Positions 18,935-37,393 of a DNA stretch of 64,000 nucleotides are shown here, piece by piece; the stretch's first letter is position 1; every line of letters starts with the position of its first letter. This stretch comes from Candidatus Bathyarchaeota archaeon. Its GTDB lineage: Archaea > Thermoproteota > Bathyarchaeia > 40CM-2-53-6. The notes below the pieces were generated by a model that had not been told where the DNA came from, did not search any database, and saw only the letters and a program-made list of their open reading frames with translations. Location: assembly GCA_963726255.1 (NCBI GenBank), contig CAVSBL010000002.1, forward strand, positions 288,001-352,000, read 5' to 3'. The position numbers were made by a program, and so were the translations under genes.

Positions 18935-19600
18935 ATGTCTGAGATTGAAGAAAAAGAGGGAATGCCGAAGTCCGAGGACCTACTCCTCCCACTCGAAGAG
19001 CTACTCGCCGCAGGCCTACACATAGGTACCAGGATTAAGACTGGTGACATGGAACCTTACATCTACCGTGTCAGGCCCGACGGGCTATTCATACTAAACA
19101 TTGGGAAGACTGATGAGAAGATTCGCCTGGCGGCCCGCTTTATCGCACGCTTTGAGGAAGGACGTGCACTGATCGTTTCCTCTAGGCTTTATGGGAAAAC
19201 TCCCGTCGAGAAGTTCTGCGAGATAACGAAGACCGTTCCCATAATTGGCCGTTTCATGCCTGGCCTCATATCAAACCCCCTGCAACCGAACCATGCAGAC
19301 CCGCAAATCATTATGGTAACCGACCCGAGAGCGGATTGGCAGGCGATTAAGGAATCGTCCAGCGCCGGAGTTCCCGTCATTGCGCTCTGCGACACGGATA
19401 ACGTTTTCAGCGGAGTCGACCTCGCAATCCCAGTGAACAACAAAGGGCGACGCGCTTTGGCAATGGTTTACTGGTTGTTGTCACGCCAGGTGCTGCGTGA
19501 ACGAGGGGAACTCGCCCAAGACGGTACAATAACTGCTACTGTGGATGATTTCGAGACAAAGTTGGCAGCTATCGCCCCGAGAGCGGGCGGTGAGTTTTGA
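18935..19600 (+). CDS. rps2: 30S ribosomal protein uS2
   Basis: LAAGLHIGT, R.DGL, GRF.PG..SNP, DP.AD.QAI.E, CDTDN, NNKGR. Confidence 0.97.
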   Translation: MSEIEEKEGMPKSEDLLLPLEELLAAGLHIGTRIKTGDMEPYIYRVRPDGLFILNIGKTDEKIRLAARFIARFEEGRALIVSSRLYGKTPVEKFCEITKTVPIIGRFMPGLISNPLQPNHADPQIIMVTDPRADWQAIKESSSAGVPVIALCDTDNVFSGVDLAIPVNNKGRRALAMVYWLLSRQVLRERGELAQDGTITATVDDFETKLAAIAPRAGGEF

Positions 19601-20448
19601 AAACTCGGAAACCATATGTGGCGAACGCCTTCTACGCCGGAACGAAAACTGAACTAACAGAACAGATAATCAGTTGCTTCACCCACCGATTTGGCCCGGG
19701 GCAAGTTCCGAGGGTCGTCGAGCATGGCCCTAGGAAGATCGTCGGGTTAGTGTCGCCGCACGCAGGGTACATGTATTCGGGACCAGTGGCGGCGAATGGC
19801 TATAGCCGACTTGCGGCTGATGGGATGCCGGAAGTATTCATAATTCTTGGCCCTAACCACACGGGGTACGGAAGCGGGGTATCTATTCTGACTGAAGGTG
19901 CATGGGAAACTCCCCTCGGCGTCACCTCGGTAGATGGCGGCGTAGCGAAACAAATCCAGAAAGGGTGCGGCATTTTGGATGTTGATGAAGCCTCGCATTC
20001 CTCTGAGCATTCCATCGAGGTTCAATTGCCTTTCATTCAATTCCTTTTCAAGGATGCTCCTAGGTTCGTACCTATCTGCATGATGATGCAAGACCTGCAG
20101 ACGAGCCGAGACATAGCGAAGAGTATAGTTGAACAGTGCAAAGGCAAGAATTTCGTCATAATCGCATCAAGTGACATGACGCATTACGAAACCCATGAGA
20201 GCGCAAGCAGGAAGGACAAAGGGGCGATCGACGCAATCATCAACCTCGATGACCGGACGCTAAATGAACTAGGGGAAAGTAGCCGAGTAACCATGTGCGG
20301 ATACGGCCCAATCACAACGCTCATAGCCGCCGCAAAAATGCTGGGAGACGTCAAGCCGGAGTTCCTGGCTTACAAGACCAGCGGCGACATAACCGGCGAC
20401 AAAGGCGCGGTCGTCGGATATTCGTCTATAGTCTTCACTCGTGAATAG
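19597..20448 (+). CDS. MEMO1 family protein (AmmeMemoRadiSam protein B)
   Basis: PHAGYMYSG, GPNHTG, W.TPLG, EHSIEVQLPF, ASSDMTHY, MCG.GP, VVGY. Confidence 0.93.
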   Translation: MKTRKPYVANAFYAGTKTELTEQIISCFTHRFGPGQVPRVVEHGPRKIVGLVSPHAGYMYSGPVAANGYSRLAADGMPEVFIILGPNHTGYGSGVSILTEGAWETPLGVTSVDGGVAKQIQKGCGILDVDEASHSSEHSIEVQLPFIQFLFKDAPRFVPICMMMQDLQTSRDIAKSIVEQCKGKNFVIIASSDMTHYETHESASRKDKGAIDAIINLDDRTLNELGESSRVTMCGYGPITTLIAAAKMLGDVKPEFLAYKTSGDITGDKGAVVGYSSIVFTRE

Positions 20449-20629: not shown

Positions 20630-21601
20630 TTGGCCAAGGCTACAGCCGTTGCTCATACTATTCAGGGTTTGTTAAAGTACCATGGCCTCAAGAACAAGAA
20701 ACTCCGGCTTCCGTTCCACGATAGCATCTCCGTTTGTGTAAAGGAACTGACGACGACGGCGACCGTTGATTTCAGCCCCCAGTACAATGAGGACATGATT
20801 CAGATTAACGGAGGCGTTGCGAAAGGCAATGAAGCGGAGCGGGTAATGGTCGTCATCGATGCCCTGCGAAGACTCGCAATGACCAAAGACCACGTGAAAA
20901 TAGTTAGTAGGAACAATCTCGAGAAGGCGAAGGGTGTCGGTTTTTCAGCGGCAGCCTTCGCATCGATTGCGTTCGCCGCAAACAATGCCCTCAACTTGAA
21001 GATTGACCTATCGCGCTTAAGCGAGATAGCACGCTTGGGAGCGGGATCTGCAAGTCGAAGCCTCGTCGGCGGTTTTTCCATCTGGTACGCCAACAAAAGA
21101 GGAAGATCGTTCGCCCAGCAGCTTGATGACGGGACGCATGTCAAGCTAGCAATGGGAATCGTGCCGTTGGCTTCACCCATAAAAACTGATATGGCGCACG
21201 ATGAGTCAACTACCTCACCTTTCTTCACCTCAAGGGTGAAATCCGTCAAAGCCGCTATCCCCAGAATGATTCACGCAATCAAGAAAGGGGACACTGCTGA
21301 AGTATGCAAGATTGCTGAAACAGATTCACTTAGCCTGCACGCAGTCACCATGACAGGTCGGCAAGGGCTTGTCCTCGTATCCCCTGAGACGATCAACGTA
21401 ATCCGAAGGGTCAGGACGTTGCGGGAAGAGAAAGGTATCCCGGTTTGGTATTCGATGGACACCGGTCCTTCAGTGTTTCTGAACACCCAGCCGGAATACT
21501 TGGACAAAGTATGCGACGATATCGAGGGCAGCCTTAACGTCCCTATCATAAGAAGTGGGGTCGGGGGCGCGGCACACGCATTTGACCAGCATCTCTTCTA
21601 G
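20630..21601 (+). CDS. mvaD: Phosphomevalonate decarboxylase-like (haloarchaeal MvaD type), copy 1
   Basis: KATAVAHTIQGLLKYHG..N.KLRLPFHDSISVC, ARLGAGSASRS, DSLSLHAVTMTG, YSMDTGPSV. Confidence 0.8.
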   Translation: MAKATAVAHTIQGLLKYHGLKNKKLRLPFHDSISVCVKELTTTATVDFSPQYNEDMIQINGGVAKGNEAERVMVVIDALRRLAMTKDHVKIVSRNNLEKAKGVGFSAAAFASIAFAANNALNLKIDLSRLSEIARLGAGSASRSLVGGFSIWYANKRGRSFAQQLDDGTHVKLAMGIVPLASPIKTDMAHDESTTSPFFTSRVKSVKAAIPRMIHAIKKGDTAEVCKIAETDSLSLHAVTMTGRQGLVLVSPETINVIRRVRTLREEKGIPVWYSMDTGPSVFLNTQPEYLDKVCDDIEGSLNVPIIRSGVGGAAHAFDQHLF

Positions 21602-21699
21602 CGGAGATACTTCGCTTCGACCGGCCAACGATGATTCTTGACAAACGTTTCGCATGATTTTTCTACTGGCTACGCAGAAAGTAATCAAGGGAGTGAACA

Positions 21700-22632
21700 T
21701 TGGGAGAAGGTGTCGGATTCGGGAAGGTCATTCTCTTCAATGAGCATTTCGTAGTGTACGGCCTCCCGGCAATAGCGTCAGCGATTGGATCTAAGACGAC
21801 CGCACTTGTTGAAAGACAAACGGGCTCAGGAGTAGAGCTGCAGGATGACAGGCCTGAGACGCCGGGTTACAAGGCAGAGAAGCTCGCTGAGCAGAAGGAA
21901 TCCTTGGACAAGATGCTCAGGTTTATGCAAGTTGACGCGGATCGCAATCATTTCAAGATCATACTAGCTGGCGATCTGATTGCTGCAAGTGGCGTCGGAG
22001 CTAGTGCCGCCTCCTGCGCCGCAATTGCGCGCGCATTTTCGGATGAGTTGGGCTTACATTTTTCTGATGAACGAATAAACGAGATTGCTTACGAGGGAGA
22101 AAAGGGGTACCATGGTACGCCATCCGGAATCGATAACACGGCAGCCACATACGGGGGTTTGATATGGTTCAAGCGAGAGCCAAATTCGCAACGAATGGAA
22201 CGCATGAAACTTAGGAAGTCGGTGGAAATTGTGATGGGCAACACAGGCATAACTGCTGACACGAAAGACGTAGTCGGAGGTGTGAAGGAGCGAAGAGAGA
22301 AGGAGCCTGAAAAGTATGCGCCCTTATTCGATGAAGCCGCCCAGCTGGTTGAAGATGCAAAGAAGCAACTCGAAGCGTTCGACCTCAACAGGGTCGGTGT
22401 CCTCATGAACAGAAACCACGAGCTGCTGCAGCAGATAGGTGTGTCATGCAATGAGCTAGACATGCTAGTGAACCTAGCCCGAGATAATGGCGCATTAGGA
22501 GCTAAGATGACGGGAACTGGACGGGGAGGCTACATGTTGGCGTTGACCCCCGGCTTAGAGCTACAACAACACGTCGCAGCTGAAATTGAGAAGAAGGGTT
22601 TTCAAGCCCTGCGCACCACGATCGGTATCTAG
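21700..22632 (+). CDS. mvk: Mevalonate kinase
   Basis: GKVILFNEHFVVYG.PAIA, SGVGASAA, HGTPSGIDN, GAKMTGTGRGG. Confidence 0.93.
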   Translation: MGEGVGFGKVILFNEHFVVYGLPAIASAIGSKTTALVERQTGSGVELQDDRPETPGYKAEKLAEQKESLDKMLRFMQVDADRNHFKIILAGDLIAASGVGASAASCAAIARAFSDELGLHFSDERINEIAYEGEKGYHGTPSGIDNTAATYGGLIWFKREPNSQRMERMKLRKSVEIVMGNTGITADTKDVVGGVKERREKEPEKYAPLFDEAAQLVEDAKKQLEAFDLNRVGVLMNRNHELLQQIGVSCNELDMLVNLARDNGALGAKMTGTGRGGYMLALTPGLELQQHVAAEIEKKGFQALRTTIGI

Positions 22633-22652
22633 ACGCTTAGGTACCTTTAGCG

Positions 22653-23948
22653 GTGAATCAGATGGAGATAGCGAATTTTCTCAAGACCCTTGAGGAAAGG
22701 GGTCTTCTGATTAGAATAAGCAAACCAGTTGATCCGAAGTACGAAATCTCGACGCTAATGAAGATGTTAGACGGGCGTGTTGTCCTCTTCGATCACGTCA
22801 ACGGATTCAGCATGCCAGTCGTAGCAAATGTCTGCTCTACACGCGACCTAGTCGCAATGGGGTTGGGAACGACGAGAGAGAAACTCATGTCGAAACTCAC
22901 CGACGCAATCGACCACCCCAAGAAAGCGAAGATAATCGAGGCGGAAGGCTACCAGAACATTGGAGCCGACCTTCGTCTCCTGCCCATATTGACACATTAC
23001 CCTAAGGACGGGGGTCCATACATATCCTCTGGCATCGTTGCATCCGAAGACAAAGAATACGGCGTCAACCTCTCCTACCATCGCGCCCAAGTCCTAGGAA
23101 GCGACTTGCTGGTCCTACGAATTCTTGAGAGGCATTTCGATTCTTACATCAAGCGAGGGTTGAAGGACTTTGCGTTCTGTATATCATCGCCCGTGCAGGT
23201 TCTAGTTAGCGGAGCGATATCGGTAGACGTCGGGATTAGTGAAGCGGACATTGCCAACGCACTGGAAGAGACTCCTCTCGTGAAACTTGACGGACATTTG
23301 GTTCCCCCTTCGGGCATCGTAATTATTGCCGAATTGACCGGTGAGCTTCACGAAGAAGGCCCATTCCTTGACTTAACCGAAACCTTCGACATCATACGCA
23401 AACAAAGAGTTGCTAAAGTCAAGAAGATATACGTCAAGAAAGGCGCGATGTATCACGCACTGCTTCCAGGTGGGCTCGAGCATAGAGTACTAATGGGAAT
23501 GCCGAGGGAGCCCACGATCTACAGAGAGGTCGCAAAGGTTTGCGACGTCAAAGATGTTCTGGTTACGTCTGGGGGCTGCTCTTGGCTGCATGGTGTCGTG
23601 AGCATACACAAGCGGAATCCAGACGACGCTCCAAAGGCCATAGAGGCCGCCTTCAAAGGCCACAAATCAATGAAACACGTCTTCATCGTGAACGATGATA
23701 TTAACATCCACGATCCCAACGAAATTGAATGGGCAATGGCAACTCGTTTTCAAGCGGACAAGAACATGATCATGAAAAGAGAAAAAGGGTCTTCACTCGA
23801 CCCATCCTCCGAGATGGATACACAGATGACCTGCAAAGTCGGGTTCGACATGACGATACCTGAAGGCAGCAAAAAGGAGTTCAAACGCCCCGAACTTCCA
23901 ATGAAACTAAACCTCAACGATTACGTAGGATCCGAATCCCGCAGGTGA
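22653..23948 (+). CDS. UbiD-family decarboxylase, likely anhydromevalonate phosphate decarboxylase (AMPD)
   Basis: DGGPYI, N.SYHR, EGPF.DLT.T.D, EH..LMGMPREP, GGCSWLH, AF.GH.SMK, SSLDPS; between mvk and PMDh subunits. Confidence 0.87.
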   Translation: MNQMEIANFLKTLEERGLLIRISKPVDPKYEISTLMKMLDGRVVLFDHVNGFSMPVVANVCSTRDLVAMGLGTTREKLMSKLTDAIDHPKKAKIIEAEGYQNIGADLRLLPILTHYPKDGGPYISSGIVASEDKEYGVNLSYHRAQVLGSDLLVLRILERHFDSYIKRGLKDFAFCISSPVQVLVSGAISVDVGISEADIANALEETPLVKLDGHLVPPSGIVIIAELTGELHEEGPFLDLTETFDIIRKQRVAKVKKIYVKKGAMYHALLPGGLEHRVLMGMPREPTIYREVAKVCDVKDVLVTSGGCSWLHGVVSIHKRNPDDAPKAIEAAFKGHKSMKHVFIVNDDINIHDPNEIEWAMATRFQADKNMIMKREKGSSLDPSSEMDTQMTCKVGFDMTIPEGSKKEFKRPELPMKLNLNDYVGSESRR

Positions 23949-25138
23949 AAATGATGTACTTGACGAAAAATGAAGAATTGATGCTATCGGGAGGAAACGG
24001 GGAGGTTGTAGAGCGGATGTTCCGCTTGCTTGTCAGCCTCGGAGATATTTACGGCGCTGACAGGATGATTCCAGTCAGCTCGGCGCAGGTCGCGGGAGTC
24101 TCGTACAAATCCATAGGTGATCCGGGCGTAGACTTCTTGGAAGATTATGCGGAGAAAGGCGCTGTTGCAAAAATAGTGACATTCCTCAATCCGGCAGGAA
24201 TGGACATTGAAGATTGGCAACAAATGAACATTCCTCCCAGCTTCGCTGAGAAGCAGCTGCGAATCATGGACGCGTTCAAGAAGATGGGCATCGTTATCAG
24301 CGCAACCTGCACCCCCTACTTGGCCGGAAACCTTCCAAGGTTCGGAGAACACATCGCTTGGTCCGAGTCGTCAGCCATCTCCTTTTCAAATTCGGTCATA
24401 GGCGCGCGAACCAACCGGGAAGGAGGGCCATCAGCCTTAGCCGCCTCACTATGCGGAGTTACCCCAAACTACGGCCTGCACTTGGACGAGAACAGAAGAC
24501 CTCAGGTTCTTGTTGATGTCAGTGCCAAACTGGAGGACAACGCAGATTATGGCGCACTAGGCTACGTCGTAGGGAAAATTGTGAAGAACAGAATTCCTTA
24601 CTTCACAGGAATCAAAGAAGCCGACACCGACCAATTGAAGGCATTGGGGGCTGCGATGGCAGCCTCAGGCGCGGTGGCACTGTATCACATTGAGAACCTG
24701 ACTCCTGAGGCGCGAGCGATGACAACCAAGGGATTAGAAAGACTGTCGGTGACCGACAAAGACTTGGACGAAACCTTCTCGAAACTCTCGACAGGAAAGG
24801 AACCCGACATTGTGATTCTCGGATGCCCACACTCCTCATTGAAGGAAATAATGACCATTTCCCGAAAGGTAGAAGGAAAGAAGTTGAAGAAACCATTGTG
24901 GGTCTGCACATCAAGAATGGTGAAAGAAGCCGCGAACCGCATGGGATTCACTCAAACCATTGAGGCAGCGGGAGGGAGAGTAGTTGCCGATACGTGCATG
25001 GTGGTCTCACCCATCGAGGATATGGGCTATAGAACAACCGGTGTCAACTCGGGCAAAGCGGCAAACTATCTACCAGGTTTCTGCAAACAGAACGTCGTAT
25101 TCACTAGGCTAGACAAACTAGTTGAGCAGTTGACCTAG
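23945..25138 (+). CDS. Aconitase X large subunit, likely phosphomevalonate dehydratase PMDh-L
   Basis: GVSYKSIGD.G, TCTPY, WSESSA...NS..GARTNREGGP, GCPH, DTCMVVSP. Confidence 0.9.
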   Translation: MKMMYLTKNEELMLSGGNGEVVERMFRLLVSLGDIYGADRMIPVSSAQVAGVSYKSIGDPGVDFLEDYAEKGAVAKIVTFLNPAGMDIEDWQQMNIPPSFAEKQLRIMDAFKKMGIVISATCTPYLAGNLPRFGEHIAWSESSAISFSNSVIGARTNREGGPSALAASLCGVTPNYGLHLDENRRPQVLVDVSAKLEDNADYGALGYVVGKIVKNRIPYFTGIKEADTDQLKALGAAMAASGAVALYHIENLTPEARAMTTKGLERLSVTDKDLDETFSKLSTGKEPDIVILGCPHSSLKEIMTISRKVEGKKLKKPLWVCTSRMVKEAANRMGFTQTIEAAGGRVVADTCMVVSPIEDMGYRTTGVNSGKAANYLPGFCKQNVVFTRLDKLVEQLT

Positions 25139-25155
25139 GACCAGCGTGAACCAGA

Positions 25156-25560
25156 ATGGAAACTCTCAAGGGAAGAACAATAAGCCCCGGGAAGGTTGAA
25201 GGCGAAAGCCTCGTATCGAAAGAGCCGATCGGGTTCTATGGCGGCGTCGATCCCAAGACAGGTCTCTTCATAGAAAAGGGGCATGAACTGGAAGGTAAAT
25301 CGGTCAGAGGCAAGATCCTAGTATTCCCGTGTGGGAAAGGCTCCACCGTGGGCTCATACGTTATCTACGGCCTCGCCAAGAACAATCAAGCCCCACTTGC
25401 AATTGTGAATAAAGAGACCGAAACCATAGTAGCCACCGGCGTAATCCTAGCCGGTGTCCCTTGCGTCGACAAAATTCCGGTTGAGAAAATAGCGACGGGT
25501 GACCATTTGATCGTCGACGCAACCGCGGGGACCGTGTCAATAATCAGGCCCGTTCAGTAA
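25156..25560 (+). CDS. Aconitase X small (DUF126) subunit, PMDh-S
   Basis: FYGGVDP.TG, H.L.G.S..GKILVFP.GKGSTVGSY. Confidence 0.9.
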   Translation: METLKGRTISPGKVEGESLVSKEPIGFYGGVDPKTGLFIEKGHELEGKSVRGKILVFPCGKGSTVGSYVIYGLAKNNQAPLAIVNKETETIVATGVILAGVPCVDKIPVEKIATGDHLIVDATAGTVSIIRPVQ

Positions 25561-25741
25561 CTGCAAGTGCTAGAACAACTGAGAGCATAGGCCGAGAGGA
25601 TGGTCGTTCATATGCTCGAACAAGTTCTGGATTCAGCAATGAGTATGATCGGATGTCAGGCTGTTGAAAGGTCGTTTCGAGAAGACTGCAATATACCTAA
25701 ACTTCAAAGCTGATGAATTGTAATCAGTAAGATGATGGCAC

Positions 25742-27010
25742 TTGGTTAAGAGTTCGGAGCTTTCCGGTTTCTACAAGCTTCCCATAGCGGAGAGGGTGCG
25801 AATGCTCAAGGAGTTCGCTGGATTGACCGAAGAGGAAGTTGGTTTGCTCCAGAAACCTGGGGCGCTTGGCTTTGACGTTGCTAACCGCATGGTCGAAAAT
25901 TTAGTGGGTGTTATGCCAGTTCCGCTCGGTGTAGCAGTTAATTTCCTAATCAACGGAAGAGACGTCGTAGTCCCTATGGCTATTGAAGAACCGTCGGTTA
26001 TAGCGGCTGCCAGCAATTCAGCCAAAATGAGCAGGCCGAAGGGCGGTTTCCATGCAACTTCCACGGACCCAATTATGATTGGGCAGATACAAATCGTCGG
26101 CGTTCAAGATGCGCATAGGGCTCGCTTCGAAATACTCGCACACAAAGCGGAGATTATGAAACATGCAAACGAACAGGATCCAGTCCTTGTCTCCCTAGGT
26201 GGGGGGGCCCGCGATTTAGAGGTACGAATCATCGACACATTCCTCGGAAAGATGGTCATCGCTGAGCTACTGGTTGACTGTCGAGACGCCATGGGTGCGA
26301 ACGCGGTGAACACCATGGTGGAAGCTGTTGCTCCCATAGCTGAGCGGGTTTCAGGCGGACGAGTTTACTTACGTATAATTTCCAACTTGGCCGTGAAACG
26401 TCTCGCCCGTGCCAAAGCAACATTTACGAAAGAGGCGTTGGGCGGCGAAGAAGTTGTTGACGGGATAGTGAACGCATACGCATTCGCTGCCGCAGACCCA
26501 TACAGATGCGCGACCCACAACAAAGGAATAATGAACGGCGCATCGGCTGTCGTACTCGCCACGGGCAATGACACCAGAGCGATTGAAGCCGGGGCCCACG
26601 CATATGCGGCTCGTTCGGGTCACTACACCTCGTTGACAACTTGGGAGAAGGACCGCAACGGTGACCTAGTCGGGACTATAGAGATGCCAATGGCGGTTGG
26701 ACTGGTTGGAGGAGCCACGGCCTCGAACCCAGTTGCAAAGTTGGGCGTGAAAATTCTCGGCGTTAAGTCGGCGAAGGAATTAGCTGAAGTAATTGTCTCA
26801 GTCGGACTAGCGCAAAACCTTGCGGCCCTTAGGGCGCTATCGGCCGAAGGGATCCAACGCGGCCACATGAATCTTCATGCCCGCAACATCGCAATTAGCG
26901 CTGGCGCGACCGGTGACCTTATCGACAAAGTCAGCGAACAAATGGTGGCTGAAAAAAAGATTCGAGTTGATCGGGCGAAAGAGCTGCTGGAAAAATACGC
27001 TAAGCGCTAG
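25742..27010 (+). CDS. mvaA: HMG-CoA reductase, class II ('degradative' type)
   Basis: SGFYKL, ENLVG, EEPSVIAAAS, DAMGANAVN, R.ATHNKGIMNG, GND.RAIEAG.H, GIQRGHM.LH. Confidence 0.93.
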   Translation: MVKSSELSGFYKLPIAERVRMLKEFAGLTEEEVGLLQKPGALGFDVANRMVENLVGVMPVPLGVAVNFLINGRDVVVPMAIEEPSVIAAASNSAKMSRPKGGFHATSTDPIMIGQIQIVGVQDAHRARFEILAHKAEIMKHANEQDPVLVSLGGGARDLEVRIIDTFLGKMVIAELLVDCRDAMGANAVNTMVEAVAPIAERVSGGRVYLRIISNLAVKRLARAKATFTKEALGGEEVVDGIVNAYAFAAADPYRCATHNKGIMNGASAVVLATGNDTRAIEAGAHAYAARSGHYTSLTTWEKDRNGDLVGTIEMPMAVGLVGGATASNPVAKLGVKILGVKSAKELAEVIVSVGLAQNLAALRALSAEGIQRGHMNLHARNIAISAGATGDLIDKVSEQMVAEKKIRVDRAKELLEKYAKR

Positions 27011-27350
27011 TTGTAGGCGTTTCTAGTTCAACGAGCGTTTCCATGCGGCGAATTTTCGGGATAGCGTCTTTCTCCATCCATTCAGAGATCGTGTCGTAGA
27101 CCTTCCTGTAATACTTCTTTGTTGCATGCTTGACTATCCCAAGCCGCTCCATTCTTCGGACGTATCGCCATTTCATGCTTCGTGAGATTTTGTCGCCCAT
27201 GAGGCGGTCGATGTCAACTTTCTTGAAAACCTTGGGCAGGTGAGCGAAGGTTCCAACGATCTCCTTCGGAAAGGCGGTCAGAGACTCTTTCGATAGTTTC
27301 CGTTTACCGCGCGAATCAATGCCGCGCAACCTACCGCCGTTAACTCTCAA
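27000..27350 (-). CDS. Hypothetical basic protein
   Basis: 116-aa ORF filling the gap after DGGGPS; no recognised motif. Confidence 0.55.
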   Translation of the reverse strand: MRVNGGRLRGIDSRGKRKLSKESLTAFPKEIVGTFAHLPKVFKKVDIDRLMGDKISRSMKWRYVRRMERLGIVKHATKKYYRKVYDTISEWMEKDAIPKIRRMETLVELETPTTSA

Positions 27351-27438: not shown

Positions 27439-28296
27439 TCATATTGTCCCAAGTATGAAGGCTAATAGACCGAACGTCATCCACACGAGCACGTAGTTCT
27501 TGCTGCGTTTAGCGTTCTTAGGGCTGGAGTTTGCCAGTATGGAATATGCGGTTAGTAGAAACCCGATGTCACATATGGCGACCAAAGGAATGTAATAGTA
27601 TGAAACCATTCCCAAGATTAGGGGTAGTCCGCTGAGGGCTACTGCAGCAACAAATAGAGCCGCGCCGTACTTTGCGGCTTTGGCATTTCCTTTTGTCGCA
27701 GCTAACGATTTAACTCCCTTAGCGGTGTCGCCCGAGACGTCAACTATCCCCTTAACAATTTCTCGTCCTATGCTTGAGAGGAAAGCGAGGAGGGAAAAAA
27801 TTCCCAATGACCAAGTAGGACTTCCCACGACGAACCCTCCGTAAATAAAAGGAATTGCCACATTCGTGCTGACGAGGGCATTGCCCAAGAGGCCTGTCTT
27901 CTTGAGCCTCGAATTATACAAGACCATGATGATTACACTCACGGTAGCAATCACGAGTGCTCCTGATCCGGAATTCCCTGCAGACCAGAAACCGATTGCA
28001 GTTAAGATCAACGAGAACGAGAGAGCTTCAGCGGGCTTTATCACTCCGGCCGGTATGGGTCGCTCCGGTTCGTTGATGCTGTCAATTTCCCGGTCGAAGT
28101 AGTCGTTCAAAACCATTGACGCGGCTAAAAGAAGGAAACCGGTCATAAACCCATAGAATGCGGCTCTCACTGGCACAGTGGTTGAAGCCATTACTTCTCC
28201 TACGATTACGGCAAAACCAATCATGACACAGTTAGGTAGGCGCATCATGGAAAGTAGGCCCACGAGTTTTCGGGTAGGTGAAACGTACGATTGCAA
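27439..28296 (-). CDS. Digeranylgeranylglyceryl phosphate synthase (UbiA family)
   Basis: R..NC, NDYFDREID.IN.P.RPIP.G, LK..GL.GN, REIVKGI.D..GD...G. Confidence 0.9.
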   Translation of the reverse strand: MQSYVSPTRKLVGLLSMMRLPNCVMIGFAVIVGEVMASTTVPVRAAFYGFMTGFLLLAASMVLNDYFDREIDSINEPERPIPAGVIKPAEALSFSLILTAIGFWSAGNSGSGALVIATVSVIIMVLYNSRLKKTGLLGNALVSTNVAIPFIYGGFVVGSPTWSLGIFSLLAFLSSIGREIVKGIVDVSGDTAKGVKSLAATKGNAKAAKYGAALFVAAVALSGLPLILGMVSYYYIPLVAICDIGFLLTAYSILANSSPKNAKRSKNYVLVWMTFGLLAFILGTI

Positions 28297-28904: not shown

Positions 28905-29252
28905 TTGGGTGTCTTGGTTACCGGAGCCGCGAAGGTTGAGGAGGGGATCCTACGCTTCAAACGTAATGTGCGAATGGTAACTGAACAGAAGAGGGTAAGG
29001 GCATACGCTAAGTGGAGGCCGACATGGACTCATGTAAGAAACTCGTTAGAGGGCCCTCGGGTCAAGCCTATCATACGGAGAATAGAGCCGCTGCCAAACC
29101 AAATCGAACACAAAACCAAAGTGCTCCTAAACAGAGCGGAATTTCGAGCCGGAACAGCGCTCACAGACCTCGTTGACAGAACAATCGTAGAGCTTGAGAA
29201 GGTAAAGAGAAAACTAGATCGACGTTTCCCACAGCGCTGGGTTGCAGCATAA
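28905..29252 (+). CDS. Hypothetical basic protein
   Basis: 115-aa ORF with GGAGG SD upstream of TTG. Confidence 0.6.
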   Translation: MGVLVTGAAKVEEGILRFKRNVRMVTEQKRVRAYAKWRPTWTHVRNSLEGPRVKPIIRRIEPLPNQIEHKTKVLLNRAEFRAGTALTDLVDRTIVELEKVKRKLDRRFPQRWVAA

Positions 29253-29401: not shown

Positions 29402-30163
29402 GTGCTTCATCCTTTGGGCGATATCAGAATTGGTAAGGTAGAAAATCACCTACAGGACGTGATTAGGAAGGAAGGAGCCGCCCATCTTACCTTATTTGAC
29501 CCGGAGAAACTCACACCCTTAGCGGCACGCAACTTGGCGTCAGAAGTCAAGAAAGCTGGTACCGCTGCCGCAATGGTTGGGGGCTCGACTGCGACCTCGG
29601 TTTACGAAGTTGACGCTATCGTGAAGGCGATTAAATCTGCCGGGCTCTACGTAATCTTATTTCCAAACGATGTTGCGGGCCTGAGCCAGAACGCCGACGC
29701 CGTTTTCTTCATGTCCCTACTAAATTCAATTAACCCGTATTACCTGTCGGGCGCCCAGGCACTTGGGGCACCGTTAGTAAAGCGCTATCGCCTTGAGCCG
29801 ATCCCGCTCGCGTACCTAATTGTTGGGGAGCATGCTGGTGCGGCCGGGTTTGTTGGTAACGCAAACCCCATCCCATACGACAAGCCCGAGCTGGCAGCAA
29901 TCTATGCCCTTGCAGCCGAATATCTCGGAATGCGCTTCGTCTACCTAGAAGCAGGGTCCGGGGCGAGAAAATCAGTTTCACCCGAAATGGTGCGCGCCGT
30001 CGATCACACATGCCATATGAACATAATCGCTGGCGGCGGAATCAAAACTCCATCCCAGGCTAAGGAATTGGTTGACGCTGGAGCGAGCGTAATTGTTACA
30101 GGTACGGTAGCTGAAAAGGCGTCCGTAGCAAAGTTGCGAGCCATAATTCGAGCCATGCACTGA
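29402..30163 (+). CDS. Geranylgeranylglyceryl phosphate synthase (group II PcrB family)
   Basis: H.TL.DPEK, VGGST, ILFP, FMSLLNS.NPY, YLEAGSGA, GGGI, VTGT. Confidence 0.93.
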   Translation: MLHPLGDIRIGKVENHLQDVIRKEGAAHLTLFDPEKLTPLAARNLASEVKKAGTAAAMVGGSTATSVYEVDAIVKAIKSAGLYVILFPNDVAGLSQNADAVFFMSLLNSINPYYLSGAQALGAPLVKRYRLEPIPLAYLIVGEHAGAAGFVGNANPIPYDKPELAAIYALAAEYLGMRFVYLEAGSGARKSVSPEMVRAVDHTCHMNIIAGGGIKTPSQAKELVDAGASVIVTGTVAEKASVAKLRAIIRAMH

Positions 30164-30183: not shown

Positions 30184-31998
30184 TTGGCTCGTTCCTTTTC
30201 TAAACGCATCACTGGGACAACTCCTTACTACAACCTCATACGGCGTGTGGCCTTTCCGTCGACGAGAACAATCTTCATCGCGTCGCTGGTTCTCACAACC
30301 GTAGGAGTCGGCCTGTCCTTCTCATTCGCCGAGCGGACAATCGCATTCTTTCTAATCGGGGCGGCATGGGGGATAGTTGCCTTCACGCTGCCATCCTTTG
30401 CATCCGACATCGTACTCTATTTCACGATAATGAAACAAGACCAGTTATTCTATCTTAGAAGGTGCCTCGCACTTTCGCTCTTCACAATATTCACTTGGGT
30501 TGTAATTTTCTTGTTCGGTTCAGTGATAACGAATTTGGATCAGAGGTTCATTTTCCCTGATTTCGCGGTCATTCTGGGGCTGTTCGCCGTGATCCCACCC
30601 CGTGCCCTCGCCGTATTTTCCATGTCTAGAACCAGTTTCGCCAGGAGAGCTCTATTCACACTCATGGAACCAACCCTAACTGTATTCTCAGTGATAATCG
30701 TGTTCGGCCTGCCGCTTGCGAGAATGATAACTGGGTTGGTGCTGTCCACGATTGTGGGACTAACTTTCGCTTTCGCCCTAATTGCCATCGTCGAGGTTTA
30801 CGGCCGCGAAGCTATAGGTTTCTCACCCATCCGAATGTTCAGGGCGTTTCTTACCGATTGGCTTGAAAATGAAAATCACGAACTCGAGTCTTACCTCAAT
30901 GAACTCGGTGTCGAAGCCGAAATAAACGCGGCGGCTTTCGCGTTTCGCAGGAAAGGTTCTGACAAGATCAAGGCCGTCATGTTCGTCTCCAACTTTCATC
31001 CCGGGCCTTTCCTAAACGTCGGTAGCAGCGTACTTCCCTATCTTATGCATTCGGTAATGAGCAGAAGGTTCAATGCAGTCACTCTCGTCCCACACGGCGT
31101 ATCAGGGCATGAATTGAACTTGGTTTCCCAAGACCAGAACGCAAGAATTATCCGATGGGTACTTGCGGGGTTGGAGCATGCGCGTTACGACGGCGGCGCC
31201 AGTCGTGTTACGAGAATGAAGAACGAAATGGCCACGGCAACCTCCCAAGCCTTCGACGGATGCGCTCTCGTAACGATGACCACCTCGCCTTCTGACATGG
31301 AAGATGTCCCCTCCGAAGTAGCAAATAGGTTGACAGGCCTTACTCACGGAAGGTTCCGCCACTTGGCTTTGGTTGACGCCCACAATTGCCTTACAGGTCC
31401 CACGACCATGACATCCCAGAAAATCGGGGCTCTCGAGGAGGCGGCTTTAGCGAGTCTGCAAGTCACCGCCGAAGAGCCGTCGAGTTCGTTCAAAGTCGGC
31501 GTGGCTCGCAAAATGCCCGCTGGGTTTACGTTAAAGGATGGGTTTGGCCCTGGCGGGATCTGTGTAATGGGAATGGAGGTTTCGGGGCAACGCTTCGCCT
31601 ACGTAAACGTAGATGGTAACAACATGGTCAGTGGCCTAAGGGAGAAGATCGTGGACGCCATCAAGGACGTCGGCTTTGATGATGGAGAAGTTATGACCTC
31701 TGATACGCACATGGTGAATGGAATCGTTTCTGCCCGCCTAGGTTACCACACGGTTGGAGAGGTGGTGCCTTGGAGTAGGGTTCTTAGCGAGGTTACTGAG
31801 GCTTGCCGCGAGGCGTTAGCTAACTTGGAAACGTGCGAAGTCGGAGTAGTTTCCGGCCAAGTCCTCGTGACCACCCTCGGATCGAAGGCACTTCGTCGCG
31901 TCATGGGCGTTGTTTACAGAATCTCAAAACTTACAGCACTAACTCTCTTTCCCATTGTGGTCGCAATCACAATACTTTCGTTGCTTTTCTTGGTGTAA
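30184..31998 (+). CDS. DUF2070 family membrane protein (putative hydrolase)
   Basis: N-terminal TM bundle; HPGPF..VGSS.LP, HG...HE, VDAHN, DGNN...GLR, T.DTH motifs; C-terminal TM. Confidence 0.85.
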   Translation: MARSFSKRITGTTPYYNLIRRVAFPSTRTIFIASLVLTTVGVGLSFSFAERTIAFFLIGAAWGIVAFTLPSFASDIVLYFTIMKQDQLFYLRRCLALSLFTIFTWVVIFLFGSVITNLDQRFIFPDFAVILGLFAVIPPRALAVFSMSRTSFARRALFTLMEPTLTVFSVIIVFGLPLARMITGLVLSTIVGLTFAFALIAIVEVYGREAIGFSPIRMFRAFLTDWLENENHELESYLNELGVEAEINAAAFAFRRKGSDKIKAVMFVSNFHPGPFLNVGSSVLPYLMHSVMSRRFNAVTLVPHGVSGHELNLVSQDQNARIIRWVLAGLEHARYDGGASRVTRMKNEMATATSQAFDGCALVTMTTSPSDMEDVPSEVANRLTGLTHGRFRHLALVDAHNCLTGPTTMTSQKIGALEEAALASLQVTAEEPSSSFKVGVARKMPAGFTLKDGFGPGGICVMGMEVSGQRFAYVNVDGNNMVSGLREKIVDAIKDVGFDDGEVMTSDTHMVNGIVSARLGYHTVGEVVPWSRVLSEVTEACREALANLETCEVGVVSGQVLVTTLGSKALRRVMGVVYRISKLTALTLFPIVVAITILSLLFLV

Positions 31999-32001: not shown

Positions 32002-33072
32002 TTGATTGAGGGCATTTCTCACGATTCGCATTATATGCAGCTGCCGAGGGAAGTGTTGATCGGCAAGGATGTCGCACTTTCGGTAGGTGAAACACTCACC
32101 CGCCTTGGCTTTCACGGACCTGCACTAGTCGTCACTGGTCGCAAGGTAGTATCAATTGCAGGTGCAACGGTCCAAGAGTCCCTGCAGCGCGCAGGTTTCA
32201 AATCGTCAACGATACTTGTCGAGAACGCAACAACCGACCAAGTCGCACAGGTCGAAAGGGAAATTCGACGTGTACATCCTGACATAGTTGTCGGAGTCGG
32301 TGGAGGCAAAGACATTGACGTTGCAAAACTCAGCAGTATGAAAGCTTCAACCAGGTTCCTAAGCGTCCCAACGGCAGCATCCCATGACGGCATAGCAAGC
32401 CCGCTGGTTTCAATGAAGGGATTGGACCGACCCTACTCATACGTGGCCCACGCGCCCATCGCAATAGTCGCCGACATATCGATAATCGCCAAATCCCCAT
32501 ATCCCCTTATAGCAAGCGGATGCGGCGACACGGTTGCGAAGTACACAGCAGTCAGAGACTGGAAGCTTGCCCACAGAATCAAGAATGAGTATTACGGCGA
32601 TTATGCGGCTGAACTTGCACTAATGAGCGTGCGCCTTGTGATGAAGAACGCAACCCGCATACGAGCAATGTCGGACTGGGGTGTTCGCACCCTGGTTGAG
32701 GCGTTAATTAGCTGCGGAGTTGCAATGAGCATCGCTGGGACCAGCCGACCTTGCAGCGGTGCAGAGCACTTGTTCAGCCACGCATTGACGATGATAGCTC
32801 CCAAACCAGCGCTGCACGGCGAGCAGTGCGGAGTTGGAACAATAATGTGCGCCTACCTACACGGGGCTAATTGGGAACTAATCAAAGATGTCCTCCAAAC
32901 CATAGGGTGCCCTACAACCGCAAAACAACTCGGAGTCGACCCCGAATATGTCATAAAGGCGTTGACTATGGCCCATTCTATCAGGCCTGAACGTTACACG
33001 ATCCTAGGCGAGAGCGGCCTCACCAAGGAGGCCGCGGAACGGGTCGCAACGCTCACAGGCGTGATTGACTAA
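32002..33072 (+). CDS. egsA: sn-glycerol-1-phosphate dehydrogenase
   Basis: GVGGGK.IDVAK, VPTAASHDGIASP, SRPCSGAEHLFSHAL, LHGEQCG, RPERYTIL. Confidence 0.96.
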   Translation: MIEGISHDSHYMQLPREVLIGKDVALSVGETLTRLGFHGPALVVTGRKVVSIAGATVQESLQRAGFKSSTILVENATTDQVAQVEREIRRVHPDIVVGVGGGKDIDVAKLSSMKASTRFLSVPTAASHDGIASPLVSMKGLDRPYSYVAHAPIAIVADISIIAKSPYPLIASGCGDTVAKYTAVRDWKLAHRIKNEYYGDYAAELALMSVRLVMKNATRIRAMSDWGVRTLVEALISCGVAMSIAGTSRPCSGAEHLFSHALTMIAPKPALHGEQCGVGTIMCAYLHGANWELIKDVLQTIGCPTTAKQLGVDPEYVIKALTMAHSIRPERYTILGESGLTKEAAERVATLTGVID

Positions 33073-33090: not shown

Positions 33091-34068
33091 TTGATCTTGA
33101 CCAAAGCAACTGCAATAGCACACGCAATTCAGGGGCTCGTGAAGTACCACGGGTTAAAGGACAGCAAACGAAGAATTCCGTACCATGACAGTATATCAGT
33201 CTGCGTTGAAGAGCTGACCACAAAAGCTACCATCGAATTTAGCGACAAATACTCGAAGGACATCATAGAAATAAACGGCGAACCAGCGCGCAGCATCGAA
33301 GCCGCCCGAGTCCTCGCGGTTGTTTCGCCGCTTAGAACGCTTGCGAAGGCGAAGGAACATTTCAAACTCTCCAGCCGGAACAATCTTCCTCAAGGCAAAG
33401 GCCTCGGATTCTCAGCGTCGGCTTTTGCATCGATCGCTCAAGCATCCAGCTCAGCTTTGAGCCTTAGAATGCAACCGGAACGTCTTAGTGAAATTGCTCG
33501 ACTCGGGGCCGGTTCCGCGAGCCGAAGCCTCGTGGGCGGCTTTTCGATTTGGTACGCCAACAAGTACGGAAGCTCATATGCAGAACAACTACCTACAGGC
33601 AAGAAAATGAACCTAGCCATGGCATTTGTTCCCATCCCATCGCAAATCAGAACTGACACGGCGCATGAAGAGTCAGTTACATCCCCTTTTTTCTCCGCTA
33701 GGTTGAAGGAAGTAGGGAAGGTCTTGCCGAGAATGCAGCGAGCGATCAGAGCTGGTGAGGTCGACGAAATTTGCCGGCTTGCAGAAGCTGATTCACTGAG
33801 CCTACATGCCATAACGATGACCGGCAAAAGTGGTCTCGTTCTCATGGGCCAAGAGACAATTGGTATAATTCAAGGGATTACATCACTGAGGGAAACGGAC
33901 CACATACCAGTTTGGTATTCACTTGACACAGGCCCGTCCGTCTACATCAACACCCACGCTGAATCCATCGATACTGTTTGCGCCGAAATTCGGAAGTACA
34001 CGAACTTTCCAGTTCTCAAGAGCAAAGTCGGAGGGCCCGCTCGCACAATAGAAGACCATCTCTTCTAG
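33091..34068 (+). CDS. mvaD: Phosphomevalonate decarboxylase-like (haloarchaeal MvaD type), copy 2
   Basis: KATAIAHAIQGLVKYHG...RRIPYHDSISVC, ARLGAGSASRS, DSLSLHAITMTG, YSLDTGPSV; collinear with 20630..21601. Confidence 0.8.
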   Translation: MILTKATAIAHAIQGLVKYHGLKDSKRRIPYHDSISVCVEELTTKATIEFSDKYSKDIIEINGEPARSIEAARVLAVVSPLRTLAKAKEHFKLSSRNNLPQGKGLGFSASAFASIAQASSSALSLRMQPERLSEIARLGAGSASRSLVGGFSIWYANKYGSSYAEQLPTGKKMNLAMAFVPIPSQIRTDTAHEESVTSPFFSARLKEVGKVLPRMQRAIRAGEVDEICRLAEADSLSLHAITMTGKSGLVLMGQETIGIIQGITSLRETDHIPVWYSLDTGPSVYINTHAESIDTVCAEIRKYTNFPVLKSKVGGPARTIEDHLF

Positions 34069-34102: not shown

Positions 34103-35836
34103 ATGTCAAACGACCTAACCGAGAAGATTCGGAAGTCAGCGATACTCAACGCAATTAGGCACAATGGGAAAGCCGACCCCGGAGCTGTTCTCGGCAACCT
34201 GCTCGGAGAAAATTCCGAGCTAAGGGCAAAGGCAAGGGAACTAACCCCATTGGTGCGGCAGGTCGTTGAAGAAGTCAACTCCATGCCATTGGATCGCCAA
34301 ACAGCCATGGCATTAGAAAAATGGCCTACAGAGCTGGCTAAGGAGCGCCCTGAAGAAGAAAGAAAGCTGCCGCCCCTCCCGAACGCCGACAAGTATTCTC
34401 TCATAGTAACGCGAATCGCACCTAACCCCGATTTTGTTCTCCACATAGGTAATGCCCGGGCCGTAATTCTGAGTCATGACTACGCTAGAATGTACAAGGG
34501 GAAATTCATTGTTCGGTTCGAAGACACAGACCCACGCCTCAAGAAGGCTCAATTGAGATACTACGACATCATCCGAGAGGACTTGAAGTGGCTCGGTTGC
34601 GAGTGGGATGAAGAGTACATTCAGAGCGACCGAATACCCATCTACTACGAAGTAGCTCAAACTCTATTCGCGAAAGCGGCCGCGTACGTTTGTGAATGCA
34701 AACCAGAACGGTTTCGAGAACTGGTCAACAGCAATTCGGCCTGTCCGGACCGGGAACTGAATGTCGAGACCCAAACGAAACGATGGCAGAAAATGCTCGA
34801 TGGGAGATACAAGGAAGGCGAAGCCGTTGTCCGGGTGAAGACGGAACTATCGCACCCGAACCCAGCAGTGAGGGACTGGCCCGCTTTCCGAATCATAGAC
34901 ACAGCCAGGAACCCGCACCCGCGCGTGGGATCGCGATTTCGTGTTTGGCCTCTTTACAACCTAGCATCCGGCGTGGACGACCACGCACTTGGAATAACGC
35001 ACGTGATCAGGGGAAAGGAACACCTCACAAACATGGCCCGCCAGCTCTTCATGTACAAGCATCTGGGCTGGCAGTACCCAGACGCAATTCATTATGGGCG
35101 CCTCAAGGTAGAGGGAATGGAACTCAGCAAGTCCAAACTCATGAAAGGGCTTGAATCAGGCGAGTACAAAGATGTTGACGATCCCAGGCTGGGAACACTT
35201 GCAGCCCTAAGAAGACGGGGCTACAGCCCAGAAGCAATTAGACAACTCATATGGGACGTGGGCCCCAAACCCGTGGACGTGACAATAAGCTGGGACAACC
35301 TCAACGCCCTGAACCGGAAAATTATCGACCCAACTTCCCACCGATACTTTTTCGTCCCAGACCCTATCAGGACGAGGATTAGTGGTGTCGAGAAACCGTT
35401 TGAAGTGCATCCTCTGCTTCACCCGCAACACCTAGAAATGGGAAGCCGAACCCTCAAGCTTCAGCCACAAAACGGAATCGCTTTGGCCTTCCTCGCAGGA
35501 AGCGACAAAGCAGTCCTAGAGTCAGGCAAAGTTGTGCGCTTGATGGGACTGTTCAACCTGAAGCCCCTAGGCTTCTCGGACGGTGAATTGAAGGCAGAAT
35601 TCGTTGACGAAGGTGTTGGCGGCCCCGAAAACGCTTCAATCCTACAATGGGTTCCAGAAGCGCAAAGCCTTCCTGCGGAGATCGTTATGCCTGACGCGTC
35701 AATAAAGAGCGGATTGGTTGAGAACGGCTTAAGCTCTGAGCCTGTTGGTTCCGTAGTTCAATTCGTCAGGTTTGGTTTCGGTCGGTTGGACAAATTCGAA
35801 CCAAACAAGATTTCGGTATACTTTGCGCATCAATGA
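34103..35836 (+). CDS. gltX: Glutamate--tRNA ligase (archaeal)
   Basis: APNP...LHIGN, RFEDTDP, HPNPAVRDW, THVIRGKEH, LSKS, QFVRFGF. Confidence 0.96.
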   Translation: MSNDLTEKIRKSAILNAIRHNGKADPGAVLGNLLGENSELRAKARELTPLVRQVVEEVNSMPLDRQTAMALEKWPTELAKERPEEERKLPPLPNADKYSLIVTRIAPNPDFVLHIGNARAVILSHDYARMYKGKFIVRFEDTDPRLKKAQLRYYDIIREDLKWLGCEWDEEYIQSDRIPIYYEVAQTLFAKAAAYVCECKPERFRELVNSNSACPDRELNVETQTKRWQKMLDGRYKEGEAVVRVKTELSHPNPAVRDWPAFRIIDTARNPHPRVGSRFRVWPLYNLASGVDDHALGITHVIRGKEHLTNMARQLFMYKHLGWQYPDAIHYGRLKVEGMELSKSKLMKGLESGEYKDVDDPRLGTLAALRRRGYSPEAIRQLIWDVGPKPVDVTISWDNLNALNRKIIDPTSHRYFFVPDPIRTRISGVEKPFEVHPLLHPQHLEMGSRTLKLQPQNGIALAFLAGSDKAVLESGKVVRLMGLFNLKPLGFSDGELKAEFVDEGVGGPENASILQWVPEAQSLPAEIVMPDASIKSGLVENGLSSEPVGSVVQFVRFGFGRLDKFEPNKISVYFAHQ

Positions 35837-35948
35837 CTCCATGAAAGCTCGAGTCGCTCTCTCGCCAATAGTGCTTGCATTAGGAGATTGCGAGTTTACT
35901 CATCTCCGTGTGCTGACTAGGTGTCACATGTGCGCTGCAGATGCCTAC

Positions 35949-35979
35949 TCCATGTTTCCATGTTTCCACGTTTCCATGT
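35949..35979. repeat. 8-bp tandem repeat, about four copies
   Basis: tccatgtt tccatgtt tccacgtt tccatgt. Confidence 0.85.
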
Positions 35980-37228: not shown

Positions 37229-37393
37229 CGCTTGGACCCATCTCCTAAACAAAACAGTCTCCGTCAAGCTATTACACTTTGGCCTAACGCTCACCTAAGC
37301 TAGGGGAAGCACGGATCCTCTACGCTCCATTTGTTTCAGTTCGTAGTTACTGGCCGCTGAAAGCGTAAATCACATATAGCAAGAGTCAGAACC

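Follow-up and report, generated by a model that had tools for sequence, protein, structure and literature searches.

The step from mevalonate 5-phosphate to isopentenyl phosphate is assigned to two described archaeal systems, the Aeropyrum-type pathway, which pairs a phosphomevalonate dehydratase (PMDh, a type IIb AcnX) with an anhydromevalonate phosphate decarboxylase of the UbiD family (AMPD) and also includes UbiX and isopentenyl phosphate kinase (IPK), and the haloarchaea-type pathway, which uses a phosphomevalonate decarboxylase (PMD) together with IPK. In the dehydratase of Aeropyrum pernix, the catalytic [4Fe-4S] cluster is bound by C122, C297, and C356 according to Komeyama et al. (2023, PMC10040528). 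PMD is described as a replacement of the dehydratase/decarboxylase pair in the discussion of Aoki et al. (2022, PMC9254496), where PMD, and then diphosphomevalonate decarboxylase (DMD), are derived from an ancestor with the AcnX/UbiD route. PMD in Bathyarchaeia has been reported by Zhu et al. (2024, PMC11052028), the text of which also mentions Hodarchaeales contigs carrying phosphomevalonate kinase (PMK) and DMD in addition to AMPD and AcnX.

Here we describe a window of 64,000 nucleotides (the whole stretch of DNA that was analyzed) from a Candidatus Bathyarchaeota archaeon, in which candidate genes of both systems lie within one lipid supercluster. We consider it probable that this archaeon maintains two parallel routes from mevalonate 5-phosphate to isopentenyl phosphate, with a duplicated PMD in one of them; the activities of the enzymes and the use of the routes are those that we infer from sequence and genomic context. 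An earlier note on this DNA had proposed two alternative routes in one gene cluster, and this proposal is upheld by the PMD type of the decarboxylases, by a dehydratase resembling that of PDB entry 7cnr, and by the co-variation of UbiD and UbiX among related genomes. The six co-oriented genes that it listed (mvaD-like, mvk, UbiD-like, AcnX-L, AcnX-S, and class II HMG-CoA reductase [HMGR]) are all on the + strand, exactly where it had placed them, while a second MvaD-like gene further downstream had been overlooked. The genome (G000) has a size of 2.42 Mb, of which the contig with the window makes up 2.36 Mb, and is listed as 98.5% complete with 9.3% contamination.

Candidate enzymes of the two routes

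In the first route, which would be free of ATP, the Fe-S dehydratase formed by the large and small AcnX subunits (AcnX-L and AcnX-S) would turn mevalonate 5-phosphate into trans-anhydromevalonate 5-phosphate. The prenyl-FMN enzyme UbiD, acting as AMPD, would then decarboxylate this intermediate with cofactor supplied by a single UbiX. The second route would be ATP dependent and of the haloarchaea type, with PMD, present as two predicted paralogues (MvaD1 and MvaD2), carrying out the step directly. Mevalonate kinase (MVK) upstream and IPK downstream would be common to both, and the routes may be taken as functionally interchangeable, given that some relatives manage with just the one and some with just the other.

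Genome-wide, MvaD1 and MvaD2 are the only MvaD-like genes, and the UbiD gene of the cluster is the only one of its kind. The earlier note had located IPK, isopentenyl diphosphate isomerase (IDI), and UbiX outside the window and had named a missing ubiX as a ground for doubt. The genome search gave one IPK outside the window (187.8 bits; cut-off, 120), one UbiX in an unrelated neighborhood (G000:C2:927164-927709; TIGR00421, 252 bits), and two IDI1-like Nudix genes, both sub-threshold (72 and 66 bits; cut-off, 105.8). The genome contains no IDI2 match (best score, 30 bits) and no PMK, the PMK model matching MVK alone. An HMG-CoA synthase-like gene elsewhere in the genome scored 270.8 bits, below the cut-off of 353.

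AcnX-L matched the type II AcnX of Thermococcus kodakarensis (7cnr) with 419.9 bits, versus 205 to 210 bits for the hydroxyproline dehydratases 7cnp, 7cnq, and 7d2r, and three of its cysteines (Cys122, Cys294, and Cys351) are matched by cysteines in 7cnr and correspond to the three cluster ligands of the A. pernix enzyme. The large and small (swivel) subunits are encoded by separate adjacent genes, 17 bases apart. UbiD has a three-domain architecture (PF20695, PF01977, and PF20696), and UbiD and UbiX are found in an identical set of genomes, 16 of the 31 sampled from the family of the window. We regard UbiD as a candidate AMPD because of its position, its being the sole UbiD of the genome, and its co-variation with UbiX; a point on the other side is that the solved structure closest to it belongs to another UbiD enzyme (6h6x, 226 bits). 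AcnX-L, AcnX-S, and UbiD constitute a predicted ATP-free route from mevalonate 5-phosphate (PMDh plus AMPD).

Both the UbiD and the AcnX families include members with other substrates, the genome contains a second AcnX pair, and the contamination listed for the bin is 9.3%. These facts would fit a reading in which the UbiD/AcnX pair acts on another substrate, a concern already raised in the earlier note, or in which the cluster is an artefact of assembly or binning. This reading is largely refuted and can be given hardly any credence. The pair is tightly packed between MVK and HMGR, AcnX-L scores far higher against the archaeal phosphomevalonate dehydratase than against hydroxyproline dehydratases, and the genomes of the related genus g4, which carry the pair, lack the other route (MvaD in 0/8). 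With respect to the assembly, the cluster genes are bridged by independently assembled contigs of four studies, with one public run from each. The 20 runs listed as containing the stretch are all DNA contigs. A single 6885-base contig spans 20076-26960, and others bridge MEMO-MvaD1-MVK-UbiD and G1PDH-MvaD2. An assembly artefact or chimera was ruled out by these contigs together with the order MEMO-MvaD-MVK-UbiD-AcnX in 8 distinct loci. Near-identical public proteins carry the names of Candidatus Bathyarchaeia metagenome-assembled genomes (MAGs).

The second AcnX pair is located approximately 40 kb upstream of the window (G000:C2:247515-249141, corresponding to L012:1501-3127). It directly follows the ATPase and permease genes of an amino-acid-type ABC transporter and has orthologues in G155 and G166. 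Its substrate is probably something other than mevalonate phosphate, and it was left out of the pathway because of its lower score (389 bits) and its amino-acid ABC transporter neighbors.

MvaD1 and MvaD2 share 59% identity along their entire length. Among the NCBIfam models, NF040704 (MvaD) gives the highest score for each of them, with 280.9 and 277.9 bits, respectively; the scores with the DMD model TIGR01240 (cut-off, 171.35) are lower in each case, 185.7 bits for MvaD1 being above and 168.4 bits for MvaD2 being below the cut-off. The model for MBD, the decarboxylase of mevalonate 3,5-bisphosphate (NF040847, cut-off 560), gave 94 and 81 bits, and that for mevalonate 3-kinase (M3K; NF040848, cut-off 440) gave 52 and 45 bits. 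Both proteins have the domains PF22700 (153 and 149 bits) and PF18376 (38 and 39 bits). The top solved structure for MvaD1 is the mevalonate 5-phosphate decarboxylase of Anaerolinea, with 151.7 bits versus approximately 120 for DMDs, and the predicted model of MvaD1 (pLDDT 96.8) has Foldseek TM scores of 0.91 to 0.93 to 6n0x, 6n0y, and 6n0z.

The residues S106, S140, R143, and D277, which represent the catalytic Ser/Arg/Asp and a Ser of the phosphate-binding loop, are invariant in both paralogues and in 16/16 of the Bathyarchaeia sequences tabulated. As for specificity, the PDB holds an N20K/H194M mutant of the Anaerolinea enzyme, a DMD-like form according to PDB titles and sequences, and in the printed alignment it differs from the other Anaerolinea sequence at exactly these sites. 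MvaD1 and MvaD2 have Leu20 and His190 there and no Lys20, giving the signature K-Y-H-G-L and A-H (His190). The same pattern, K-Y-H-G-[L/M] with A-H, occurs in the representative P0133 and in all 14 PMD-type Bathyarchaeia sequences tabulated. For a broader view, we used 117 full-length representatives of 50%-identity clusters, labeled by best NCBIfam model and not by experiment (34 MvaD-best, 3 MBD-best, 79 DMD-best, and 1 without a match). Apart from P0133, His18 is present in 27/33 and His190 in 26/33 of the MvaD-best representatives; among the DMD-best representatives, Trp18 is found in 76/79, Lys20 in 60/79, and Met190 in 54/79.

A phylogeny of the GHMP decarboxylases had been suggested in the earlier note as a check. 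It places the Bathyarchaeia clade (0.999) within a 48-tip clade (0.874) that includes none of the 79 DMD-best sequences, a position of the PMD type apart from DMD, but with MBD-like sequences among the neighbors. The DMD type was ruled out by H18, L20, and H190, in place of K-Y-W-G-K and G-M, and by the lack of PMK in the genome. The Thermoplasma-type enzymes MBD and M3K were ruled out by scores far below the cut-offs and by the lack of the MBD N-terminal extension; in the alignment with the solved MBD (PDB 7t71), residue 63 of the chain is the first to be paired, with residue 10 of MvaD1. The pathway context also fits PMD, with MVK in the cluster, IPK in the genome, and no PMK. Profile, solved structure, specificity residues, and tree thus agree in predicting that MvaD1 and MvaD2 are of the archaeal PMD type.

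Several observations weigh against this assignment. Both proteins are far under the NF040704 equivalog cut-off of 475, a narrow cut-off that 1 of the 117 representatives passes (P0133, 603 bits). Position 105 in the phosphate-binding loop is Phe in the paralogues and Ser in 79/79 DMD-best sequences. All trees were made with FastTree only, the broad tree was midpoint rooted with tip labels taken from profile scores, and the nearest non-Bathyarchaeia neighbors in it include the MBD-like sequences just mentioned. Because of these neighbors, the profile-based labels, the midpoint root, and Phe105, the ATP dependence of MvaD1 and MvaD2 is put forward as a prediction.

The low scores, the MBD-like neighbors, and Phe105 would also suit a repurposed MvaD, the alternative raised in the earlier note, and the existence of two paralogues invites a division of labor. 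One or both proteins would then decarboxylate mevalonate 3,5-bisphosphate without ATP, serve as a 3-kinase, or use some other substrate, and the genome would have the archaeal route only. We give this reading a small chance. Neither protein has lost any of S106, S140, R143, and D277 or of the residues for PMD specificity, and the fixed differences of the MvaD1 clade amount to just T44A, L103V, and L203V, all conservative. There is no N-terminal extension, and the M3K and MBD models yield 45 to 94 bits against cut-offs of 440 and 560. Furthermore, two sister genera (g2 and g3) rely on the orthologue alone. A repurposed MvaD is therefore disfavored relative to two PMD-type enzymes.

Distribution, maintenance, and history of the routes

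The distribution was examined in 31 genomes of the family of the window, whose genus is designated g1. Both routes are found in 8 genomes, all of g1, AcnX/UbiD/UbiX only in 8, and PMD only in 13; the remaining two are G158, with PMK and DMD, and G154 (72% complete), with nothing found. UbiD and UbiX are held by the genome of the window, 7 other g1 genomes, and 8/8 genomes of g4. A PMD-type MvaD is present in 9/10 genomes of g1, 9/9 of g2, 2/3 of g3, 1/1 of g81, and 0/8 of g4. Eight PMD-only genomes of g2 and g3 were tested for IPK and MVK, and every one of them has both. As these genera have MVK and IPK but no UbiD/AcnX, the MvaD orthologue is their sole candidate for the step.

A wider sample consisted of 151 Bathyarchaeia genomes, including that of the window, with a match threshold of E <= 1e-20. 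MvaD-like genes were detected in 20, AcnX in 127, and both in 10 of these. All 9 of the double genomes besides that of the window also have UbiD, often adjoining AcnX. One of the ten, G003, has a gene of the DMD type and not of the PMD type, and G087 has a UbiD fragment and no AcnX match. Outside the family of the window, the double state of a PMD-type gene and AcnX is found in 8 more genomes, and the total for co-occurrence is 9 to 11 of the 151. In G003, which belongs to another family, locus L034:3237-9038 contains UbiD, AcnX-L, AcnX-S, IPK, UbiX (-), and a decarboxylase (-). The latter has the DMD-like K-Y-W-G-K and G-M, and the MvaD and DMD models score it nearly equally (248.7 vs 248.1 bits). 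Fourteen of the 151 genomes are without both AcnX and an MvaD-like match, including all 3 of genus g9 (G040, G063, and G107; 83 to 92% complete).

A genome scan for related loci gave 136 records, of which 80 were kept; all of the latter have MAG titles, mostly Bathyarchaeia or Bathyarchaeota. The supercluster is conserved throughout the family, but the modules inside it vary. The order in g4 is uS2-MEMO-MVK-UbiD-AcnXL-AcnXS-HMGR, with no MvaD, and that in g2 and g3 is GGGPS-DUF2070-G1PDH-MvaD-GluRS, which corresponds to the position of MvaD2. Within g1, MvaD lies between MEMO and MVK in 8 distinct loci and solely after G1PDH in others. It is found between AcnX-S and HMGR in L068, and L045 and L056 have the order IPK-UbiD-AcnXL-AcnXS-MvaD. 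Both copies are present in the genome of the window, in G169 (with MvaD1 and HMGR split), and in a MAG that is nearly identical to that of the window (L054 with L066; 98% and 96% identity).

An MvaD tree of 91 distinct sequences out of 113 joins the copies between MEMO and MVK, plus that of L056, in one clade (0.993). This clade is nested in a clade of the genus (1.0), the other members of which are located between G1PDH and GluRS. MvaD1 therefore would have originated by duplication inside the genus and relocated to the operon, although its exact sister is weakly supported (0.62), and MvaD2 is predicted to be the family-inherited copy at the ancestral position between G1PDH and GluRS. The operon-borne UbiD/AcnX module is common to g1 and g4 (79 to 87% identity). 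Since PMD is found between G1PDH and GluRS in g2 and g3, and the module in g4, it is simplest to suppose that both routes would already have been present in the ancestor of the family.

The genome of G158 (g1, 96% complete), the supercluster proteins of which are 69 to 89% identical to those of the window, presents a third arrangement. Between MVK and HMGR (L047:7456-9702), it has a DMD gene (TIGR01240, 199.6 bits; cut-off, 171) and next to it a gene resembling PMK (120 bits with an ERG8-type model, under the cut-off), and no match was found in it for AcnX, UbiD, UbiX, a PMD-type MvaD, or IPK. Judged by its genes, this is a predicted eukaryote-type lower mevalonate route in the slot of UbiD-AcnX. 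Two versions of the UbiD-AcnX module, mutually 43 to 53% identical, occur in g1 (L042, L044, L045, L056, L039; L040, L041, L046), and one of them travels with IPK. There are likewise two versions of MVK in the genus, 73 to 86% and 34 to 38% identical to that of the window. The presence of two module and MVK versions suggests repeated replacement by transfer.

Ratios of nonsynonymous to synonymous substitution (dN/dS) were calculated by the Nei-Gojobori method, using only pairs with unsaturated dS. They are 0.04 to 0.19 for MvaD1, 0.08 to 0.18 for MvaD2, 0.06 to 0.09 for UbiD, 0.03 to 0.04 for AcnX-L, 0.01 to 0.04 for AcnX-S, 0.05 to 0.09 for MVK, and 0.03 to 0.14 for other neighbors. All route genes of the window are full length relative to their profiles. 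Because the genes are intact and their dN/dS values are like those of essential neighbors, both routes look functional and maintained under purifying selection. Two findings temper this conclusion. dS is saturated in most comparisons, so that the values rest on few pairs, and split copies occur within the genus, of MvaD1 and HMGR in G169 (L038) and of UbiD and AcnX-L in G153 (L040). These split frames could reflect decay of one route or assembly errors. G169 has no AcnX between UbiD and HMGR; a different AcnX pair lies beside UbiX on another contig.

The split copies would fit a state of passing redundancy, in which one route is being replaced by the other and both sets are still intact, with no advantage in having both and with one to be lost. 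The sister genera are indeed down to one route (module only in 8/8 genomes of g4, PMD only in 9/9 of g2), and within g1 itself, UbiD, UbiX, and the PMDh-type AcnX are gone from G166, and G158 has neither route. We nevertheless consider passing redundancy unlikely, although it deserves more weight than a repurposed MvaD. The dN/dS values of both routes are as low as those of essential neighbors, and the double state extends to 8/10 genomes of g1 and, with a gene of the PMD type, to the 8 genomes noted above from other Bathyarchaeia families. The PMD position and the module are each common to different sister genera, which suggests that both were present in the family ancestor. Moreover, PMD has been duplicated into the operon, and three further arrangements (L045, L056, and L068) have it as a neighbor of UbiD-AcnX.

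The earlier note also suggested a switchable pathway, for example one dependent on oxygen or iron, and a regulated switch between the routes may be plausible. On a speculative note, the archaeal route may be the cheap one under anoxic, energy-limited conditions, and the PMD route may be the oxygen-tolerant one, as it would need neither an Fe-S cluster nor prenyl-FMN. This raises the possibility, which we advance only tentatively, that the arrangement is a selected fail-safe, with AcnX/UbiD as the economical default in anoxic peat or sediment and the PMD paralogues as a backup or a means of restart. The paralogues would keep up the isoprenoid supply whenever the AcnX/UbiD route fails, having no Fe-S cluster, oxygen-sensitive step, or prenyl-FMN. 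UbiX makes prenyl-FMN from dimethylallyl phosphate, and PMD could restart the AcnX/UbiD route because this precursor is a product of the pathway. MvaD1, which heads the mevalonate operon, appears to have an upstream region to itself, and MvaD2 lies with the lipid-backbone genes, 18 bases behind G1PDH. Two slots, one between MVK and HMGR and one after G1PDH, may serve as exchange sites, at which three of the four known mevalonate variants would have been swapped within one genus.

Gene content of the lipid supercluster

The supercluster extends from a ribosomal protein gene to that of glutamyl-tRNA synthetase, and its features are listed in Table 1. MVK, UbiD, AcnX-L, and AcnX-S are separated by a 20-base gap, a 4-base overlap (AcnX-L over the UbiD stop), and a 17-base gap, which leaves no room for a small LpdD-like gene between MVK, UbiD, and AcnX. 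HMGR is of class II and not class I (TIGR00532, 485.5 bits with a cut-off of 259.95, vs TIGR00533, 54.2 bits with a cut-off of 441.8). The top models for the UbiA-family prenyltransferase are those of digeranylgeranylglyceryl phosphate synthase.

Table 1. Features of the lipid supercluster, with positions in the window
Feature	Position	Strand	Evidence and remarks
uS2 ribosomal protein	18935..19600	+	TIGR01012, 254.6 bits; upstream anchor of the supercluster; identity of 82-100% across related loci
MEMO / AmmeMemoRadiSam system protein B	19597..20448	+	PF01875, 263 bits; TIGR04336, 306 bits
MvaD1, GHMP decarboxylase of predicted PMD type	20630..21601	+	MVD-like_N and MDD_C; head of mevalonate operon
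Mevalonate kinase (MVK)	21700..22632	+	TIGR00549, 238.6 bits (cut-off 163)
UbiD-family decarboxylase	22653..23948	+	N, Rift, and C domains; TIGR00148, 296.5 bits (cut-off 244.85)
AcnX large subunit, candidate phosphomevalonate dehydratase (PMDh)	23945..25138	+	PF04412, 541.7 bits
AcnX small (swivel) subunit	25156..25560	+	PF01989, 113.8 bits; NF003046, 178 bits
HMG-CoA reductase, class II (NAD-type)	25742..27010	+	TIGR00532, 485.5 bits (cut-off 259.95)
UbiA-family prenyltransferase	27439..28296	-	PF01040, 142 bits; NF009523, 259 bits, and NF009521, 199 bits, both sub-cut-off
Geranylgeranylglyceryl phosphate synthase (GGGPS)	29402..30163	+	NF003198, 302 bits; TIGR01769, 240.7 bits
DUF2070 membrane protein	30184..31998	+	PF09843, 389.5 bits; synteny
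Glycerol-1-phosphate dehydrogenase (G1PDH)	32002..33072	+	NF002022, 494.5 bits (cut-off 413)
MvaD2, second decarboxylase of predicted PMD type	33091..34068	+	NF040704, 277.9 bits; 18 bases after G1PDH
Glutamyl-tRNA synthetase (GluRS)	34103..35836	+	NF003169, 727.6 bits; downstream anchor of the supercluster

In all loci of the family that were seen, the gene of the DUF2070 protein (604 residues) is flanked by those of GGGPS and G1PDH, which points to a role in lipid synthesis. Its identity to the protein of the window is 60 to 85% in g1 and only 31 to 39% in g2, g3, and g4. Open reading frames (ORFs) without a Pfam or NCBIfam match are located in or beside the supercluster at 27000-27350 (-), 28905-29252 (+), 35921-36499 (+), and 36521-37294 (-). 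Nothing other than such ORFs accounts for the gap of 1.1 kb between the prenyltransferase gene and GGGPS. The G+C content dips to 0.43 at 38001-40000, compared to 0.48 to 0.55 in the rest of the window. A strict TATA-like pattern had no match in the intergenic regions of the cluster. A ATATATTTAAG stretch upstream of MvaD1 and a TTTTT after it were spotted by eye and carry no evidential weight alone.

Significance and comparison with described systems

The family offers living examples of the proposed stages at one site, with the old route only, the old route plus PMD, PMD only, and PMK plus DMD without IPK. Because these stages are present in close relatives at one chromosomal site, the replacement scenario becomes testable. 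The window would also represent a natural case of a cell that keeps two routes to one lipid precursor, the first costing 2 ATP and the second 3 ATP, which bears on how energy-limited archaea of sediments insure an essential pathway. The archaeal route is already used by engineers to save ATP, and the arrangement is of engineering interest as well.

The genes of the first route resemble the Aeropyrum-type pathway in the two-subunit AcnX with its three ligand cysteines, in UbiD directly upstream, in the presence of MVK and HMGR in the block, and in UbiX and IPK in the genome. They differ in that the operon is headed by a predicted PMD gene, of which there is a second copy. With the haloarchaea-type PMD (NF040704, EC 4.1.1.99, acting with IPK), MvaD1 and MvaD2 share the best profile, K-Y-H-G-[L/M] with A-H, the catalytic Ser/Arg/Asp, and the superclade of P0133. 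They are, however, approximately 40% identical to P0133, they score 281 and 278 bits against the cut-off of 475, they have Phe and not Ser/Thr/Ala at loop position 105, and they co-occur with the route that PMD is said to replace. The Anaerolinea thermophila enzyme (6n0x, 6n0y, and 6n0z) is the nearest solved structure (33% identity), and the His that is lost in N20K/H194M is kept in the proteins of the window; the motif is K-Y-W-G-N in Anaerolinea and K-Y-H-G-L in the Bathyarchaeia proteins.

The closest published data on the co-occurrence are rows of a table in Zhu et al. (2024, PMC11052028), where PMD, acnX1, acnX2, and AMPD are recorded together in at least 12 genomes. These 12 comprise 5 of 15 Bathyarchaeia, 5 Thermoplasmata, 1 UBA186, and 1 Lokiarchaeia. 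The passages of that text that were searched do not discuss the co-occurrence of PMD with the archaeal route and refer to "chimeric" pathways for Asgard archaea alone, and full-text literature searches brought up no further publication that treats PMD in Bathyarchaeia or the two routes in combination. The concern in the earlier note that the co-occurrence might already be common and described thus applies to the recorded data and not to their discussion in those passages. The 15 Bathyarchaeia rows of the table differ from our results in having no PMK, no DMD, and no two PMD copies. As data, therefore, the co-occurrence is not new, being visible in a published supplementary table; what is new is the physical linkage of the two routes, the within-genus duplication, the evidence for selection, and the three-way exchange of modules in one genus.

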